From: Gemmatimonadota bacterium
GTDB lineage: Bacteria; Gemmatimonadota; Gemmatimonadetes; Gemmatimonadales; GWC2-71-9
DNA length: 22,038 nt
Direction: 5' to 3'
Assembly: GCA_003221005.1 (NCBI GenBank)
Contig: QHTZ01000101.1
Location: 1-22,038, forward strand
The position numbers and the translations under genes were made by a program. Position 1 is the first letter of the stretch; each line of letters begins with the position of its first letter. This document shows positions 4,717 through 12,111 of this stretch, piece by piece. The notes under the pieces are model-generated. The model was not told where the DNA came from. It did no database searches and saw only the letters and a program-made list of their open reading frames with translations.

Positions 4717-6063
4717 ATGACGCTGCTACGCCGCGTTTCACTGCTCGTCGGTGCCATCGTCGCGCTGAGTTGTGACGAGCAGCAGGCCACCGCTCCGCGC
4801 TCCGCGCTCTCACTTAACATGAGCGCGAAGAGCTCCACGAATCCATGCGTGCAGGACAGGGACCACGACAAGAGATCCGCCCCGGTGCAGATCCTGTGCG
4901 CGATGACCGTGCCCGGCAATCCGCTCACCAACGTCGCCAAAGGCTGGTTTAGCCACCCGCGCAACGCCCTCTACATCGCCGATCAGTCCAACCGGGGCGT
5001 GGACGTCATCGACCTCAGGAGCTACTCGTACGCGGGCCGGGTGACCGGTTTCGTCGGTGTCGCCACCACCGGGGGTGGCACGGCCACCACCAACGGCCAG
5101 GGCCCGAACAGCATGGCGCTGGCCGAGGAGCACCACATGTGGGTGTCGGACGGCAACAGCCAGATGCAGGTCGTGGACCTGCTGTCGCTGTCGATCATCC
5201 AGACCGTCAGCACCGCGGCCGCGGCGTGCGATGGCGGGACGGCGACGACCCACTATTGCGGCCGCACCAACGAGATGACTTCCGATCCGGACGACCACAT
5301 TATCATTGTCACAAATCCGAACCCGCTCGATCGCACGACGCACGCGGCGCTTCCGCCGTACGTGACGTTCATCGATGCGCACCCCCCGTACCCGATCCTG
5401 GGCACCATCGCGTTCCCGGACGCGAGAGGCACCCCCGAGGCGCCGGTGTGGAATGGTAAGACGCACCGGTTCCTGCTTCCGGTCCCGACCTGCAACAATG
5501 CGGCGACCTGCGATCCGGCGCGGGGCGGGACCGAGTATATCGCGGTGATCGATCCCCAGACGCTCAGCGTGGAGACGCGATTCAACATCCCGGATTGTCA
5601 TACGCTCATGCCCAGCATCTCCCCCGTCCCGACCGGCATGATCAACGACATGTCGATCGACGAGAAGGACCAGCACGTGCTCATGCCGGTGTGCGGCAGG
5701 GGGGAAGTCGTGTTCGATGCGCGGGACGGTCACGTGGTGAACGTGGTCACCGAGATCGCCGGCAGCGACGAGACCTGGTTCAACGAGGGCGACGGCCGTT
5801 TCTACGTGGCTGCCAACGACCCGGCCAACGCGAACACGCGGTCACTCGGTGTAATCGATGGACGTACCGGCTTGTGGCTTCAGAATGTGCCGGTCGTGGG
5901 CGGGGTAATCCCCACGGCAAGCGATGAACCTGCGAACCGCGCGTTCCTGACGGTGACGGCGTCGACGACGGGCACCACCGCCTGCACGCCATTTGGCCTC
6001 GCCGCGTCGGGCTGCGTGATCGTGTTCGAGCACGAAGACGCGAAGCCTGATAAAGAGAAGTAG
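4717..6063 (+). CDS. Lipoprotein, YncE/YVTN-like beta-propeller
   Basis: GAGGGGG RBS; lipobox VALS-C; repeated blades (LYIADQSNRGVDVIDL, MWVSDGNSQMQVVDL, IAVIDPQT, LGVIDGRTG); several paired Cys. Confidence 0.75.
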   Translation: MTLLRRVSLLVGAIVALSCDEQQATAPRSALSLNMSAKSSTNPCVQDRDHDKRSAPVQILCAMTVPGNPLTNVAKGWFSHPRNALYIADQSNRGVDVIDLRSYSYAGRVTGFVGVATTGGGTATTNGQGPNSMALAEEHHMWVSDGNSQMQVVDLLSLSIIQTVSTAAAACDGGTATTHYCGRTNEMTSDPDDHIIIVTNPNPLDRTTHAALPPYVTFIDAHPPYPILGTIAFPDARGTPEAPVWNGKTHRFLLPVPTCNNAATCDPARGGTEYIAVIDPQTLSVETRFNIPDCHTLMPSISPVPTGMINDMSIDEKDQHVLMPVCGRGEVVFDARDGHVVNVVTEIAGSDETWFNEGDGRFYVAANDPANANTRSLGVIDGRTGLWLQNVPVVGGVIPTASDEPANRAFLTVTASTTGTTACTPFGLAASGCVIVFEHEDAKPDKEK

Positions 6064-6075
6064 GGAGGTACGGTC

Positions 6076-6516
6076 ATAGCGAAATCGATCGAGGACGGTG
6101 TAGTCATTGTCCGCGGCAGTGCCGCCGGGTTTGCGCAACAAATCACGGCTGGCCGCCATCATCTCGTTGCAGATGAGCCGGTCAGCGCCGGCGGAACCGA
6201 CACCGGGCCCGACCCCTACGACCTCGTGCTCGCGGGTCTCGGCGCGTGAATGTCGATGACCATCGCGCTGTATGCGCGACGGCACGGGTGGCTGCTCGTC
6301 GGCGTGACGGTGCGCCTGCGCCACTCGAGAATCCACGCGGAAGATTGCGCTGAATGTGAGACGAAGCAGGGGATGCTCGACCACATCGAGAGCGAGATCG
6401 TCCTCGAGGGACAGCTTGTCGAGGAGCAGCGGACCAAACTTCTGGAAATCGCGAACCGCTGTCCGGTGCATCGGACCCTGACGTCAGAAATCCACATTAG
6501 TAGTCGGCTGATTTGA
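6076..6516 (+). CDS. OsmC/Ohr-family (YhfA-like) protein with in-frame UGA; probable selenoprotein, 146 aa, Sec58
   Basis: Frame reads ...[33 protein letters not shown](6247-6249)[14 protein letters not shown]...[12 protein letters not shown]. The TGA aligns with the Cys of the family motif LGAC(T)SMT. RBS GGAGGT (6064-6069) is 6 nt before ATA at 6076. Confidence 0.85.
6253..6287 (+). promoter_or_regulatory. Candidate bacterial SECIS element
   Basis: TCGCGC (6263-6268) pairs perfectly with GCGCGA (6274-6279) around loop TGTAT, with G at loop position 2. The stem extends with CC/GG and bulged TG/CA and TCG/CGG pairs. The loop starts 20 nt after the UGA. Confidence 0.65.
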
Positions 6517-6544
6517 CGGGGCCGCCGGCCTACCCCCTCGCATC

Positions 6545-6574
6545 TTGCGCGCGGCTCACCTAACGAAGTAGTGT
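6545..6574 (+). promoter_or_regulatory. Possible sigma70 promoter for the tRNA
   Basis: TTGCGC-N18-TAGTGT followed by GC-rich GGCCCG, 20 nt before the tRNA. Confidence 0.35.
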
Positions 6575-6594
6575 GGCCCGAGGCTGATGTCGTA

Positions 6595-6667
6595 GACCCG
6601 GTAGCTCAGTTGGTAGAGCAGCGGACTTTTAATCCGCAGGCCGCGGGTTCGATCCCCGCCCGGGTCA
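6595..6667 (+). tRNA. tRNA-Lys (anticodon UUU), CCA not encoded
   Basis: Cloverleaf: acceptor GACCCGG/CCGGGTC, D arm GCTC-AGTTGGTA-GAGC, anticodon arm GCGGA-CTTTTAA-TCCGC, T arm GCGGG-TTCGATC-CCCGC, discriminator A followed by TGT. Confidence 0.97.
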
Positions 6668-6684
6668 TGTTCTCGGGGTGAGCC

Positions 6685-7716
6685 ACGAAACGCGTCCTGC
6701 TGCTGACTTCCTTTCTGTCGGGTATCGGTCCCGCTGCCGTCCAGGCGCCGCCGGAGCCTGAATCCTACGCCTTCTCGCAATCCGTAGTCGTCCAGCTGGG
6801 GGTTGCCCCGCGGCTTTACTTCACCGCGCCGTCCGGAGCCTTGGAAGCCGTGGACGCGCGTACGGGCGCGGTCCTGTGGCGTACGAACAAGGCAGCCTTT
6901 CCCTTACTGGCGCGGGGACACCGGCTGTTGGCGCTGCTCCCGCAGGTGCCGGGCACGCAAGGATGGCGGTTGGGCGTGTTGGACGTCCGCTCGGGCGTCA
7001 TCCTTTCCAAGTTTCCGATCTGGGGCGGGGGCGGTGGCGCTGTGGGAGATGGCTTGGGCTCTTCCACGGGCATGGAAGCGTTTTCCGTGCAGGGGCGGGA
7101 CTACGTGGTCTGGCGGTCCCGCCGGACCCATGTGTCGGGCGCGTACATGCCGCAACGCCAGCCCGAGCCGGTCTACCGGGATTCGGGTATGGCCGAGGTG
7201 GACCTATTCCGAGGGACGTTGATCCCCGTATCCGAGGAGATGCCTGACCGTTCCCTCAAGATCCAAGTGAATCCAGAGGGGGGCTATCACACCGAACCCT
7301 TCGACGTGGACGGCGTCACCGCCGTGGCATCCACGGACCACGAGAGTGGGAAAGTCCAGCTCGTGTTGCGCCGGACCCGCGACGCCGCGGCGCTTCCAGA
7401 CGTCGTGTTGTGCGAGCCACCTGGTGGCAGCGTCGGCGTGCAGGTTTCAGCCGACAGGCGTTACGTAGCGGGAAGTTGTCCCGATCCGGCCACGGTCCCG
7501 CGCTACCACTACGGCGTCGTGGTTCATTCCACCGTCACCGGCGAAAGAGTCGGACGCCTGGTGAGCGCAGCGTGGCCCGCAGCGTTCGTGGTGTGGAACG
7601 GCCTCCTCCTCTATTTCTTTCCCGACAGCGTCCACGTCGGATCCTTCTCCGCTGGGAAGGAGCTGTTCGCGTGGCCCGTCAAGGACCTGCGGTACCACGG
7701 CCCCTATCCACCGTAG
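6685..7716 (+). CDS. Secreted hypothetical protein with a PQQ-like propeller repeat; start codon appears to be ACG
   Basis: Frame is open from 6682. From ACG at 6685 it reads (M)KRVLLLTSFLSGIGPAAVQA-PPEP, a signal-peptide pattern. The PQQ-type repeat LYFTAPSGALEAVDARTGAVLWR spans the ORF-track TTG start at 6841. Confidence 0.6.
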   Translation, partial: TKRVLLLTSFLSGIGPAAVQAPPEPESYAFSQSVVVQLGVAPRLYFTAPSGALEAVDARTGAVLWRTNKAAFPLLARGHRLLALLPQVPGTQGWRLGVLDVRSGVILSKFPIWGGGGGAVGDGLGSSTGMEAFSVQGRDYVVWRSRRTHVSGAYMPQRQPEPVYRDSGMAEVDLFRGTLIPVSEEMPDRSLKIQVNPEGGYHTEPFDVDGVTAVASTDHESGKVQLVLRRTRDAAALPDVVLCEPPGGSVGVQVSADRRYVAGSCPDPATVPRYHYGVVVHSTVTGERVGRLVSAAWPAAFVVWNGLLLYFFPDSVHVGSFSAGKELFAWPVKDLRYHGPYPP

Positions 7717-9878: not shown

Positions 9879-10742
9879 ATGGCTCCCACCATCTGGATCG
9901 ACGGCAAGTACTGCGACGAGGCGAACGCCAAGATCTCGGTGTTCGACCACGGCTTGCTGTACGGCGACGGTGTGTTCGAGGGGATCCGGGTCTACAACCG
10001 GCGCATTTTCCGCCTCCACCAGCACCTCGACCGGCTGTACGCGTCGGCGAAGGCCGCGTGGATCGAGATCCCCCTCGCCCGGGACGCGATGGACCGTGTC
10101 CTGGGCGAAGTGGTGGCGAAGAGCGGGATCGCGGACGCGTATATCCGGCTCATCGTCACCCGCGGCATCGGCGACTTGGGACTCGATCCGCGGAAGTGCT
10201 CCAACCCTTCGGTCATCTGTATCGTGGACCACATCCAGCTGTGGCCCCCCGATCGCTACGAGAAGGGACTCACCGCAGTCTCCGCGGCGACGCCGGTCAA
10301 TCACCGAGAGAGCCTCTCGCCGCGCATCAAGTCCCTGAACTACCTCTCCCACATCCTGGCGAAGGTCGAAGGGATCGCCGCGGGCGTCGACGAAGTCGTC
10401 ATGCTGGATTCCGCCGGGCTGGTGGCCGAGGCGAGCGGCATGAACCTGTTCGTGGTGGCGAACGGGACCTTGAAGACGCCGCCCGCCTATGGCGGGATCC
10501 TGCGCGGTGTGACCCGCGACGCCGTGCTCGAACTGGCGCGCGAGGCGACCTACGGCGTCGAGGAAGTGCCGCTCAACCGCTACGACCTCTACACCGCGAA
10601 CGAGCTCTTCCTCACGGGCACCGCCGCCGAAGTGATCGGCGTGACGAAGCTTGATGCCCGCACCATCGGCGCGGGCGTGCCGGGACCGGTGACCAAGGAG
10701 CTCGCCCGGCGCTTCAAGGCCCTCGCGACCCGGGGTGACTGA
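9879..10742 (+). CDS. ilvE: Branched-chain amino acid aminotransferase (PLP fold type IV)
   Basis: ISVFDHGLLYGDGVFEGIR, IKSLNYL (PLP lysine), EASGMNLF, ILRGVTR, ELFLTGTAAEV; AGGA RBS before ATG 9879. Confidence 0.95.
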   Translation: MAPTIWIDGKYCDEANAKISVFDHGLLYGDGVFEGIRVYNRRIFRLHQHLDRLYASAKAAWIEIPLARDAMDRVLGEVVAKSGIADAYIRLIVTRGIGDLGLDPRKCSNPSVICIVDHIQLWPPDRYEKGLTAVSAATPVNHRESLSPRIKSLNYLSHILAKVEGIAAGVDEVVMLDSAGLVAEASGMNLFVVANGTLKTPPAYGGILRGVTRDAVLELAREATYGVEEVPLNRYDLYTANELFLTGTAAEVIGVTKLDARTIGAGVPGPVTKELARRFKALATRGD

Positions 10743-12111
10743 CACCACCCACGACATCATCATCATCGGAGGTGGCACCGCCGGCCTGGTGACGGCGGCG
10801 GGGGCGGCGGCGCTGGGCGCGAAGGCCGCCCTCATCGAACGCTCAGCGCTCGGGGGAGAGTGCCTGTGGACGGGATGCGTGCCGTCGAAGGCACTGATTG
10901 CGTTCTCCCGCCGCCCATCTCCCGCCTCCCGCTGGGATGACGCCGTCGCCTGGCTCCGCTCCGCTCAATCCCGCATCGCCCCGCACGACTCCCCGGAGCG
11001 GTTTCGCGCCATGGGGGTGGACGTGCGGCTGTCGCCCGCACGGCTTGCCGGACCGGGGCAGGTGGACGTGGACGGCGCGCGGCTGCGCGCCCGGCGCATC
11101 GTACTCGCCATGGGGTCGATCCCTGCGATCCCCGCGATCCCCGGGCTCGCGGCCGCTGGCTTCCTCACCCACGTCACTGCCTACGATCAGCCGCGGCTCC
11201 CACCGAGCATCGCGGTGCTGGGTGGTGGGCCCGTGGGGCTCGAGTTCGCTCAGGCGTACCACCGGCTCGGTGCCAAGGTCACGGTGCTGGAGCTCCTCCC
11301 CGAGGTGCTTCCAAGGGAAGATCCTGAAGCCGCACGCTGCGTCCGCGAGCAGCTGGTGACGGAAGGGATCTCCGTCCTCACGGGCTTCCGGGCTAGCGAG
11401 GTGCGGCAAGGCGATAGCGCGAAGACGGTGCTGGCGGAGGATGGCCGGCGCGTCGTGGCGCATGAGGTCTTCGTGGCCGCAGGGCGGCGCGCCGACGCAC
11501 GGGACGTTGAGCCCGAGAACGCCGGCGTCGAGCTGGATGCGGGCGCCGTGCGCGTCAATGCGCGGCTCGAGACGACGGCCCGAGGCATCTGGGCCGCCGG
11601 GGACGTGACGGGGGCCCCGCAGTTCACGCACGTCGCCGACTACATGGCGCGGGTGGTGGTACGAAACGCCCTCACACCCCTGAAGACGCGCGCGAGCTAC
11701 CGCCTGGTCCCGCGGGTCACCTACACCGATCCCGAGGTAGCGCAAGTCGGTCTGACGGCGGGCGAGGCGGGCGCCGCAGGAGAGCGATCCGAGGTCTTCC
11801 GCTCCGATCTAGGCGACCTTGACCGCGCGATCGTGGACGGCGCGACGGCGGGCTTCTGCAAGATCGTCGCGCGCCGCAACGGCACGATCCTCGGCGCCAC
11901 GATCGTCGGCCGCGGTGCGGGGGAGCTGATCATGGAACTCGCGCTCGCGATGCGGCACGGCATCAAGCTCGGACAGCTCGCGGGCGCGATTTTCCCCTAT
12001 CCCACGATGAGCGAGATCGTCAAGCGCACGGCGGACAGCTGGTACCGCGCGCGCTACGGCGACACATCGCGTGGCCGCGTCCTGCGCCGATTGATTCGCC
12101 TGTGGCTGTGA
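10735..12111 (+). CDS. Flavoprotein disulfide reductase, mercuric-reductase-like/dihydrolipoamide dehydrogenase family
   Basis: IIIGGGTAG (FAD), GGECLWTGCVPSKAL redox disulfide, VLGGGPVGLE (NAD(P)H), IWAAGDV and C-terminal YPTMSE. No C-terminal Cys-Cys, so not a true MerA. Confidence 0.9.
   Translation: MTDTTHDIIIIGGGTAGLVTAAGAAALGAKAALIERSALGGECLWTGCVPSKALIAFSRRPSPASRWDDAVAWLRSAQSRIAPHDSPERFRAMGVDVRLSPARLAGPGQVDVDGARLRARRIVLAMGSIPAIPAIPGLAAAGFLTHVTAYDQPRLPPSIAVLGGGPVGLEFAQAYHRLGAKVTVLELLPEVLPREDPEAARCVREQLVTEGISVLTGFRASEVRQGDSAKTVLAEDGRRVVAHEVFVAAGRRADARDVEPENAGVELDAGAVRVNARLETTARGIWAAGDVTGAPQFTHVADYMARVVVRNALTPLKTRASYRLVPRVTYTDPEVAQVGLTAGEAGAAGERSEVFRSDLGDLDRAIVDGATAGFCKIVARRNGTILGATIVGRGAGELIMELALAMRHGIKLGQLAGAIFPYPTMSEIVKRTADSWYRARYGDTSRGRVLRRLIRLWL

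Follow-up and report, generated by a model that had tools for sequence, protein, structure and literature searches.

The question raised by this locus is whether a TGA codon in the middle of an OsmC-family reading frame acts as a stop or as a codon for selenocysteine (Sec). The window, which is the whole stretch of 22,038 nucleotides that was analysed (contig QHTZ01000101.1 of the Gemmatimonadota assembly GCA_003221005.1), carries this frame on its forward strand at 6076-6516. An initial annotation, made from the sequence before any database search, had proposed that the frame continues with intact family sequence through TGA 6247-6249, that open reading frame (ORF) calls recover only 6250-6516, and that the product is a Sec58 enzyme which standard annotation would truncate. 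Judged from comparative sequence data, 6076-6516 is very probably one OsmC-family gene in which UGA 6247-6249 is decoded as Sec58. Furthermore, the conservation of the TGA column and of the hairpin that follows it was far beyond chance in the comparative data.

Reading frame, family and the UGA column

The frame was open from 6064 to 6516 (+), with TGA 6247-6249 as its sole interruption and TGA 6514-6516 as its terminal stop. When ORFs were called with ATG, GTG or TTG starts, only 6250-6516 (88 residues) was returned in the OsmC frame, and annotation on this basis would report an 88-residue fragment or drop the gene. Translation from 6076 with TGA read as Sec gave 146 residues with U58, C91, C94 and C129. 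The complete coding sequence of the predicted OsmC-family selenoprotein (6076-6516, +) was delimited from the Pfam match, the homologue alignment, the substitution ratios and the AlphaFold and Foldseek results. The continuity of the frame and the loss of its first part in ORF calls were as the initial annotation had described them, its other statements on the sequence proved correct as well, and its interpretation as a truncated Sec58 enzyme was supported, all of its computable predictions being borne out.

The read-through protein matched the Pfam family PF02566 (OsmC) with 55.9 bits (gathering cut-off 27.5; E 5.9e-15), residues 40-142 being aligned to positions 1-98 of the 100 in the model. 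The best NCBIfam model was NF041052, aligned from residues 22-145 to positions 17-140 of 144, and at E <= 0.01 the search with the read-through protein reported none of the other OsmC and Ohr models in NCBIfam. The protein database search gave 7947 matches at E <= 0.001 among 8000 scored candidates, and the best 120 of them were 135-161 residues long and 66-80% identical. Fourteen of these 120, all Cys forms with 66-78% identity over the full length, were used for the homologue alignment.

In this alignment the column of residue 58 was Cys in 14/14 homologues, within LG[AS]C[T]SMT. On the evidence of the homologue columns, UGA 6247-6249 (+), the putative Sec codon of residue 58, aligns with the Cys of LGAC, which is the first catalytic (peroxidatic) one. 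Cys91, Cys94 and Cys129 were invariant in the same 14 sequences, in line with the earlier observation that the second Cys (RCPVHRTL) and an additional CxxC (DCAEC) are retained. Cys129 (CPVHRTL; 6460-6462, +) is the second conserved Cys of OsmC and Ohr proteins and is presumed to be the resolving residue by analogy with them, following the accessible part of PMC8945050. Both conserved catalytic positions of two-cysteine peroxidases were therefore present, with UGA at the first and the invariant Cys129 at the second. The extra CxxC, Cys91/Cys94 (6346-6357, +; codons 6346-6348 and 6355-6357), lies between the predicted strands 74-87 and 100-112, and both of its cysteines were kept in 20/20 Sec forms.

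The fold was in agreement with the family assignment. The AlphaFold2 model, with a mean predicted local distance difference test (pLDDT) value of 79.4 and a predicted template modelling (pTM) score of 0.73, placed residue 58 in the long helix 47-69 and C129 just before helix 130-136. Among the Foldseek matches listed for the PDB, all were OsmC, Ohr or OsmC-like proteins; the best E-value was 6.2e-06, and the template modelling (TM) scores were 0.46-0.57 with the model taken as a monomer. The closest solved structure by sequence was PDB 9wo1, 'Osmotically inducible protein C', with an E-value of 1.1e-32. The JGI names of the Cys homologues were only 'uncharacterized OsmC-like protein' or 'putative redox protein'. 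In addition, the more distant Cys homologues of the phylum with 43-61% identity (L019, L020, L052, L054-L058, L060 and L061) carried a fused N-terminal domain, about 270 residues long, with an HSLGG motif; this domain looks like an alpha/beta hydrolase, and all Sec forms stand alone.

At the catalytic column, which is flanked by conserved sequence on either side, the pairing of Cys with TGA was found in genomes well beyond that of the window. In a phylum sample of 401 genomes spread evenly, 88 had a match at the threshold of E <= 1e-20, and 17 of these 88, the window included, carried exactly one in-frame TGA; family f1, that of the window, contained all 17. A set of 41 near relatives included one genome, G020, whose orthologue is 72% identical and has its TGA at the column of residue 58. 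The best 80 named loci of GTDB species genomes held TGA in 5 cases and TGC or TGT in 75, and three of the five repeated loci of the phylum sample, which left two new ones. Altogether 20 distinct TGA forms were collected, always with TGA at the same column, together with 88 distinct Cys forms (TGC or TGT). The TGA forms all lie in Gemmatimonadota or score closest to it.

Several genomes in these sets are unpublished. G020 supplies the Sec form L017 and G201 the Cys form L038, while G121, G176 and G083 enter only the phylum counts of TGA and SelA. All conclusions hold without the unpublished genomes, except the case of Cys conversion in G201 described below. One TGA form with an identical hairpin, L069, which is one of the two new named loci, was found in a metagenome-assembled genome titled Acidobacteria, and the other titled TGA loci were Gemmatimonadota. 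The placement of L069 could be the result of horizontal transfer or of a binning error.

Selection acted on both sides of the UGA. Between the window and 14 other Sec forms, the ratio of nonsynonymous to synonymous substitution rates (dN/dS) was 0.05-0.36 in the upstream half (codons -41 to -1) and in the downstream half (codons +12 to +38), wherever the synonymous rate (dS) was computable. The median dS over 105 pairs was 1.2 in the upstream half and 0.9 in the downstream half. Both halves are under purifying selection, which indicates that they are translated in one frame. Moreover, the codon after UGA was a Thr codon in 17/20 Sec forms; the local sequence was U-T-S-M-T in these 17 and U-M-S-M-T in the window, where ATG 6250 follows the UGA, with Thr at +4 in both.

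The TGA was also found in DNA assembled independently of the window's contig. The comparison used Logan contigs of three soil runs, each from a different study, X1 and X3 covering 5900-6274 and X4 covering 5900-6092; X1 is possibly the source of the window DNA. TGA 6247-6249 was unchanged in X1 and X3, and ATA 6076-6078 was unchanged in X1, X3 and X4, so that neither is an assembly slip. The TGA is thus not private to the strain, since other genomes and these contigs of independent soil runs carry it. The depth summed over contigs rose 10- to 100-fold across 6251-6277, exactly where the hairpin lies, in three soil metagenome runs (in X3, for instance, 1240 versus about 12). The contigs of the window's strain broke at 6255-6274, and the 27-nt stretch 6251-6277 was common to many organisms of the samples.

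The SECIS-like hairpin and the selenocysteine machinery

A candidate selenocysteine insertion sequence (SECIS) was located shortly downstream of the UGA by folding and conservation. This SECIS-like hairpin (6260-6282, +) has the stem 6263-6268/6274-6279 (UCGCGC/GCGCGA) and the loop 6269-6273 (UGUAU), and two optional lower pairs join 6260-6261 with 6281-6282. The 17-nt hairpin begins 13 nt after the UGA, its loop begins 20 nt after the A of the UGA, and the G is the second base of the loop. The SECIS distance window of bSECISearch is reportedly 16-37 nt. Each fold computed for the 40-65 nt that follow the UGA contained the hairpin, and the core sequence of the hairpin was unique in the window's genome. 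An Rfam scan of 6150-6700 at E <= 1 returned tRNA and chance matches only, none of them on the hairpin; as Rfam is not known to include a general bacterial SECIS model, this negative carries little weight.

The hairpin TCGCGC-TGTAT-GCGCGA with its G-containing loop, as first read from the window alone, proved to be shared by the whole set of Sec forms. Its six stem pairs were intact in 20/20, and the loop was UGUAU in 16 and UGUAC in 4. Of the 88 Cys forms, only 2 had all six pairs, 8 had five and the other 78 had at most four; these counts compare groups that were defined by the trait itself. Both Cys forms with six pairs were close relatives of Sec forms, and one of them was without the loop G.

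The synonymous sites of the hairpin were frozen. Synonymous entropy was zero at codons 63 (ATC, 19/19), 64 (GCG), 65 (CTG), 67 (GCG) and 68 (CGA), the last four in 20/20 each, compared with 1.0-2.1 bits in the Sec forms at codons for Ala, Leu and Arg in other parts of the gene. At the other Arg columns examined, CGA occurred in at most 3/20 sequences. Likewise, the median dS over codons +1 to +11, the hairpin region, was 0.23 versus 0.9-1.2 in the flanks. This freezing of synonymous sites is a constraint at the RNA level.

One Cys form retained the entire element. L038, from G201, is a 74% identical orthologue with TGT in place of TGA and a complete hairpin including the UGUAU loop, and no SelA match was found in G201 (95% complete). 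A Cys form with a full hairpin in a genome where SelA was not found is the pattern expected after loss of the Sec trait, and the sequence of L038 suggests that Sec was recently converted to Cys and that the SECIS persists as a fossil.

The absence of any changed stem base in 20 orthologues, with flanking synonymous sites near saturation and no compensatory pairs, would suit a sequence-specific recognition. On this ground it might be supposed that SelB of this phylum reads the bases of the hairpin and not its shape alone, or that the element has a second role, and that the window's copy, with its ATA start, is deliberately expressed at a low level in dependence on coupling; we consider this proposal speculative and rather doubtful.

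The host was expected from the outset to encode the Sec machinery, and all four components were found in the window's genome (2.79 Mb, 141 contigs, 93.9% complete). The tRNA-Sec scored 82.5 bits, above the cut-off, and was called SeC(tca) by ARAGORN. SelA (454.5 bits) and SelD (376.9 bits) were also above their cut-offs. SelB, which scored 310.7 bits (cut-off 242.25) over positions 2-338 of the model, lies where a short contig ends, and a C-terminal winged-helix domain of SelB was found at another contig end. SelD (locus L011; G000:C46:14499-15422, -) is itself a selenoprotein gene by its sequence, with a single in-frame TGA of its own in GAGUACK and an 8-bp hairpin 7 nt after it.

Furthermore, SelA was detected in 15/16 of the TGA-form genomes sampled besides the window's. 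For the phylum as sampled, SelA was present in 320/401 genomes, and the window's family had it in 144/165. By these counts, most of these soil bacteria seem to possess the Sec trait. In one genus (g34), SelA was found in only 1/15 genomes.

Start codon and alternative explanations

The start of the gene is an unusual feature of the window's copy. No in-frame ATG, GTG or TTG was found between TAG 6061-6063, the stop of the upstream ORF 4717-6063, and TGA 6247-6249. The sole start codon of translation table 11 that opens the N-terminal part 6076-6249 is ATA 6076-6078 (+), a putative non-canonical start. A Shine-Dalgarno-like GGGAGG (6064-6069, +), read from the sequence with its function inferred, lies 6 nt 5' of the ATA and directly 3' of the stop TAG.

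Among the 18 other Sec forms with the N-terminus on the contig, 13 had ATG at codon -57 relative to Sec and the remaining 5 had ATG at -53 to -56. The window's copy has ATA at -57 and is without the GTG codons that other Sec forms have at -46 to -49. ATA in place of an ATG initiator is therefore a feature particular to the window's copy. The position 6076, taken as the start in the initial annotation, most likely stands, since by sequence comparison the window's copy most likely initiates there; what had been overlooked is that the codon is ATA. Initiation at ATA 6076 would be helped by GGGAGG 6 nt upstream, and it may be aided by coupling, or termination-reinitiation, with the ORF that ends 12 nt upstream.

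Several observations weigh against reading 6076-6516 as a working selenoprotein gene. The window's copy, being without a canonical start, may be poorly translated or recently disabled. With the window as query, the gene was not found in 6/6 genomes of the same genus (71-100% complete), and its distribution is patchy. SelA was not matched in one of the TGA-form genomes, G376, which is 92% complete. The NF041052 score was 57.8 bits, below the curated cut-off of 95, and it was 49.5 bits in the six-frame genome search, also below that cut-off.

The RNA-level evidence has points of the same kind. The 64 nt after the UGA folded no better than shuffled sequences (z -0.76; 43/200 as good), and because the single-sequence fold is at chance level, the SECIS claim was not rested on folding. 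No covariation was found, as the stem is invariant in the 20 Sec forms, so that its support is conservation and not compensatory change. It is the trait that defines the Sec and Cys groups, and they are clustered phylogenetically: the Sec/Cys state needs only 4 changes on the tree, compared with a mean of 18.7 for shuffled labels (0/500 shuffles as low), and the contrast of 20/20 with 2/88 is therefore not one of independent trials. The small number of changes on the tree nevertheless counts in favour of the Sec reading. The RNA-library contigs (X20) cover 6238-6554 only and may derive from DNA, and they were not counted as expression. In addition, the accessible part of PMC8945050 describes the YhfA-like branch of the OsmC fold as one in which peroxidase activity is unproven.

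The strongest of the competing explanations is that the gene is a young pseudogene in the window's strain, in which ATG changed to ATA, translation ceased, and the UGA and hairpin persist as relics. Two observations speak for it: the window's copy is the only one of 19 Sec forms (those with the N-terminus on the contig) in which neither ATG nor GTG nor TTG occurs from the upstream stop to codon -44, and the gene's absence from the searched genomes of the same genus suggests that it is dispensable there. However, the copy has no frameshift and no extra stop, has lost no invariant residue, and keeps the low dN/dS of 0.05-0.36 against the other Sec forms. The ATA is an accepted, though weak, table-11 initiator with GGGAGG at a distance of 6 nt, and its presence in contigs of three runs means that it is no read error. 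The X20 contigs match 6275-6554 exactly, which is a weak hint in the same direction; part of their coverage comes from other organisms. Decay of the gene in this strain is accordingly considered improbable.

A second explanation takes UGA 6247 as a true stop in a split gene, which would encode a 57-residue peptide and an 88-residue peptide restarting at ATG 6250 by UGA-AUG coupling. ATG 6250 does adjoin the TGA, and gene callers would give 6250-6516, but the codon at this place is Thr and not ATG in the 17 Sec forms mentioned above. Moreover, the Cys homologues are all continuous, with an invariant Cys at the UGA column, and a split would lose the catalytic residue and cut helix 47-69 of the model. 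It would also leave the frozen hairpin and the co-occurrence with the Sec machinery without explanation, and a split gene is thus very unlikely. Read-through without selenium, whether by a general reassignment of UGA to Trp or Gly or by near-cognate decoding as Cys or Trp, would likewise yield a full-length protein and has nothing specific in its favour, and it is hardly credible given that UGA terminates the window's gene (6514-6516) and 17/20 of the Sec-form orthologues, that SelA and SelB were matched without an in-frame stop, that the aligned residue is Cys and not Trp or Gly, and that a dedicated tRNA-Sec, SelA, SelB and SelD are present.

Gene neighbourhood, proposed function and known systems

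The upstream ORF 4717-6063 (+) encodes 448 residues with a GC content at third codon positions of 0.85 and a lipoprotein-like N-terminus (...ALSC), and it looks like a genuine gene. It had no Pfam family at E <= 1e-5 and no tblastn match in 30 orthologous loci, and several partial paralogues of it were seen in genomes of the same genus. As the upstream ORF shows no synteny across the loci, the gene context gives no clue to function. In G001, of the same genus (L150, G001:C29), the upstream ORF has a homologue of 78% identity, whose end corresponds to the beginning of the OsmC gene in the window and which is followed by unrelated DNA. A tRNA-Lys(ttt) gene lies at 6595-6667, 79 nt downstream of the OsmC gene, which may be a case of local gain or loss beside a tRNA gene. 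Further away, 4 kb downstream, a pyridine nucleotide-disulfide oxidoreductase is encoded at 10735-12108 (+), with Pyr_redox_2 and dimerisation domains (E 1e-59). Dihydrolipoamide dehydrogenase, by which Ohr and OsmC are recycled, belongs to this class of enzymes.

For the selenoprotein reading of 6076-6516, a mechanism can be proposed in which SelB with Sec-tRNA(Sec) would bind the hairpin UCGCGC-UGUAU-GCGCGA as a bacterial SECIS and deliver Sec at the UGA in competition with release factor 2. Both the incorporation of selenium and the binding of SelB to the hairpin are what we infer from the comparisons above. In the protein, the Sec58 selenolate would attack a hydroperoxide and become a selenenic acid, which Cys129 would resolve as a selenenylsulfide. 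Re-reduction would be by a thiol donor, which in Ohr and OsmC is a lipoylated protein, and the invariant Cys91-x-x-Cys94 may relay electrons or bind a metal. A function as hydroperoxide peroxidase, with Sec58 as the peroxidatic and Cys129 as the resolving residue, is plausible by analogy. In Ohr and OsmC, according to the accessible part of PMC8945050, the peroxide is attacked by the first Cys, which then forms a disulfide with the second Cys of the same molecule, and this disulfide is reduced by lipoylated proteins.

The finding bears on annotation and on experiments with SelB. Because the score is below the NF041052 cut-off, a pipeline of the PGAP (Prokaryotic Genome Annotation Pipeline) type would not rescue the gene through this model, and with the remaining annotation being a fragment, the redox repertoire of these soil bacteria is under-counted. 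The locus adds a well-supported Sec/Cys pair for a phylum of soil bacteria. Moreover, its hairpin, very compact and invariant in sequence, is a SECIS candidate on which the specificity of SelB could be tested.

Selenoproteins of the OsmC type have been predicted before. The family 'OsmC-like protein' was predicted in 2005 from the Sargasso Sea with 3 sequences, assigned to COG1765 and with the motif UxxT (Zhang, Fomenko and Gladyshev; PMC1088965, accessible part). It was found again with 5 sequences in the Global Ocean Sampling (GOS) survey (PMC2398784), and it is listed in reviews of 2022 and 2026 (PMC9312934, PMC13188914), as far as the available portions of these papers extend. A search by title and abstract gave no paper on selenoproteins of Gemmatimonadota or Gemmatimonadetes, survey supplements lying outside that search.

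Compared with the family of 2005, as represented in the same portion of the paper, the window's protein is alike in its OsmC fold (PF02566; COG1765/YhfA), in an in-frame UGA set against Cys homologues, and in a 3' hairpin with a small apical loop containing G, and both were predicted from sequence only. No numeric SECIS criteria were found in the portion of PMC1088965 available. The two differ in origin and motif: the 2005 family came from marine metagenomes with UxxT, whereas the window's clade is of soil Gemmatimonadota with U-[T/M]-S-M-T, in which Thr stands at +4 instead of +3, the comparison being one of tabulated motifs only. The Ohr/OsmC peroxidases, such as E. coli OsmC and the Xylella and Pseudomonas Ohr proteins, share the fold and have two catalytic positions similarly placed, but, going by the accessible descriptions of them, the window's protein differs in its predicted Sec at the first position and in its extra invariant CxxC.

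PDB 9wo1 shares the LGAC, DCxxCE and CPVH motifs, with residues 4-144 of the query aligned to 258-397 of the chain. It is a Cys form of 400 residues with an N-terminal domain of about 255 residues, whereas the window's protein stands alone. The nearest curated family is NF041052, 'OsmC_like_Se, OsmC-related (seleno)protein', to which the window's protein was aligned end to end, but it is not a member by the curators' threshold. The OsmC-type selenoprotein has thus been a known kind since 2005, and the window's gene is another member and no new kind of system. It is set apart within that kind by its score below the cut-off, its U-x-S-M-T motif and its clade of soil Gemmatimonadota.

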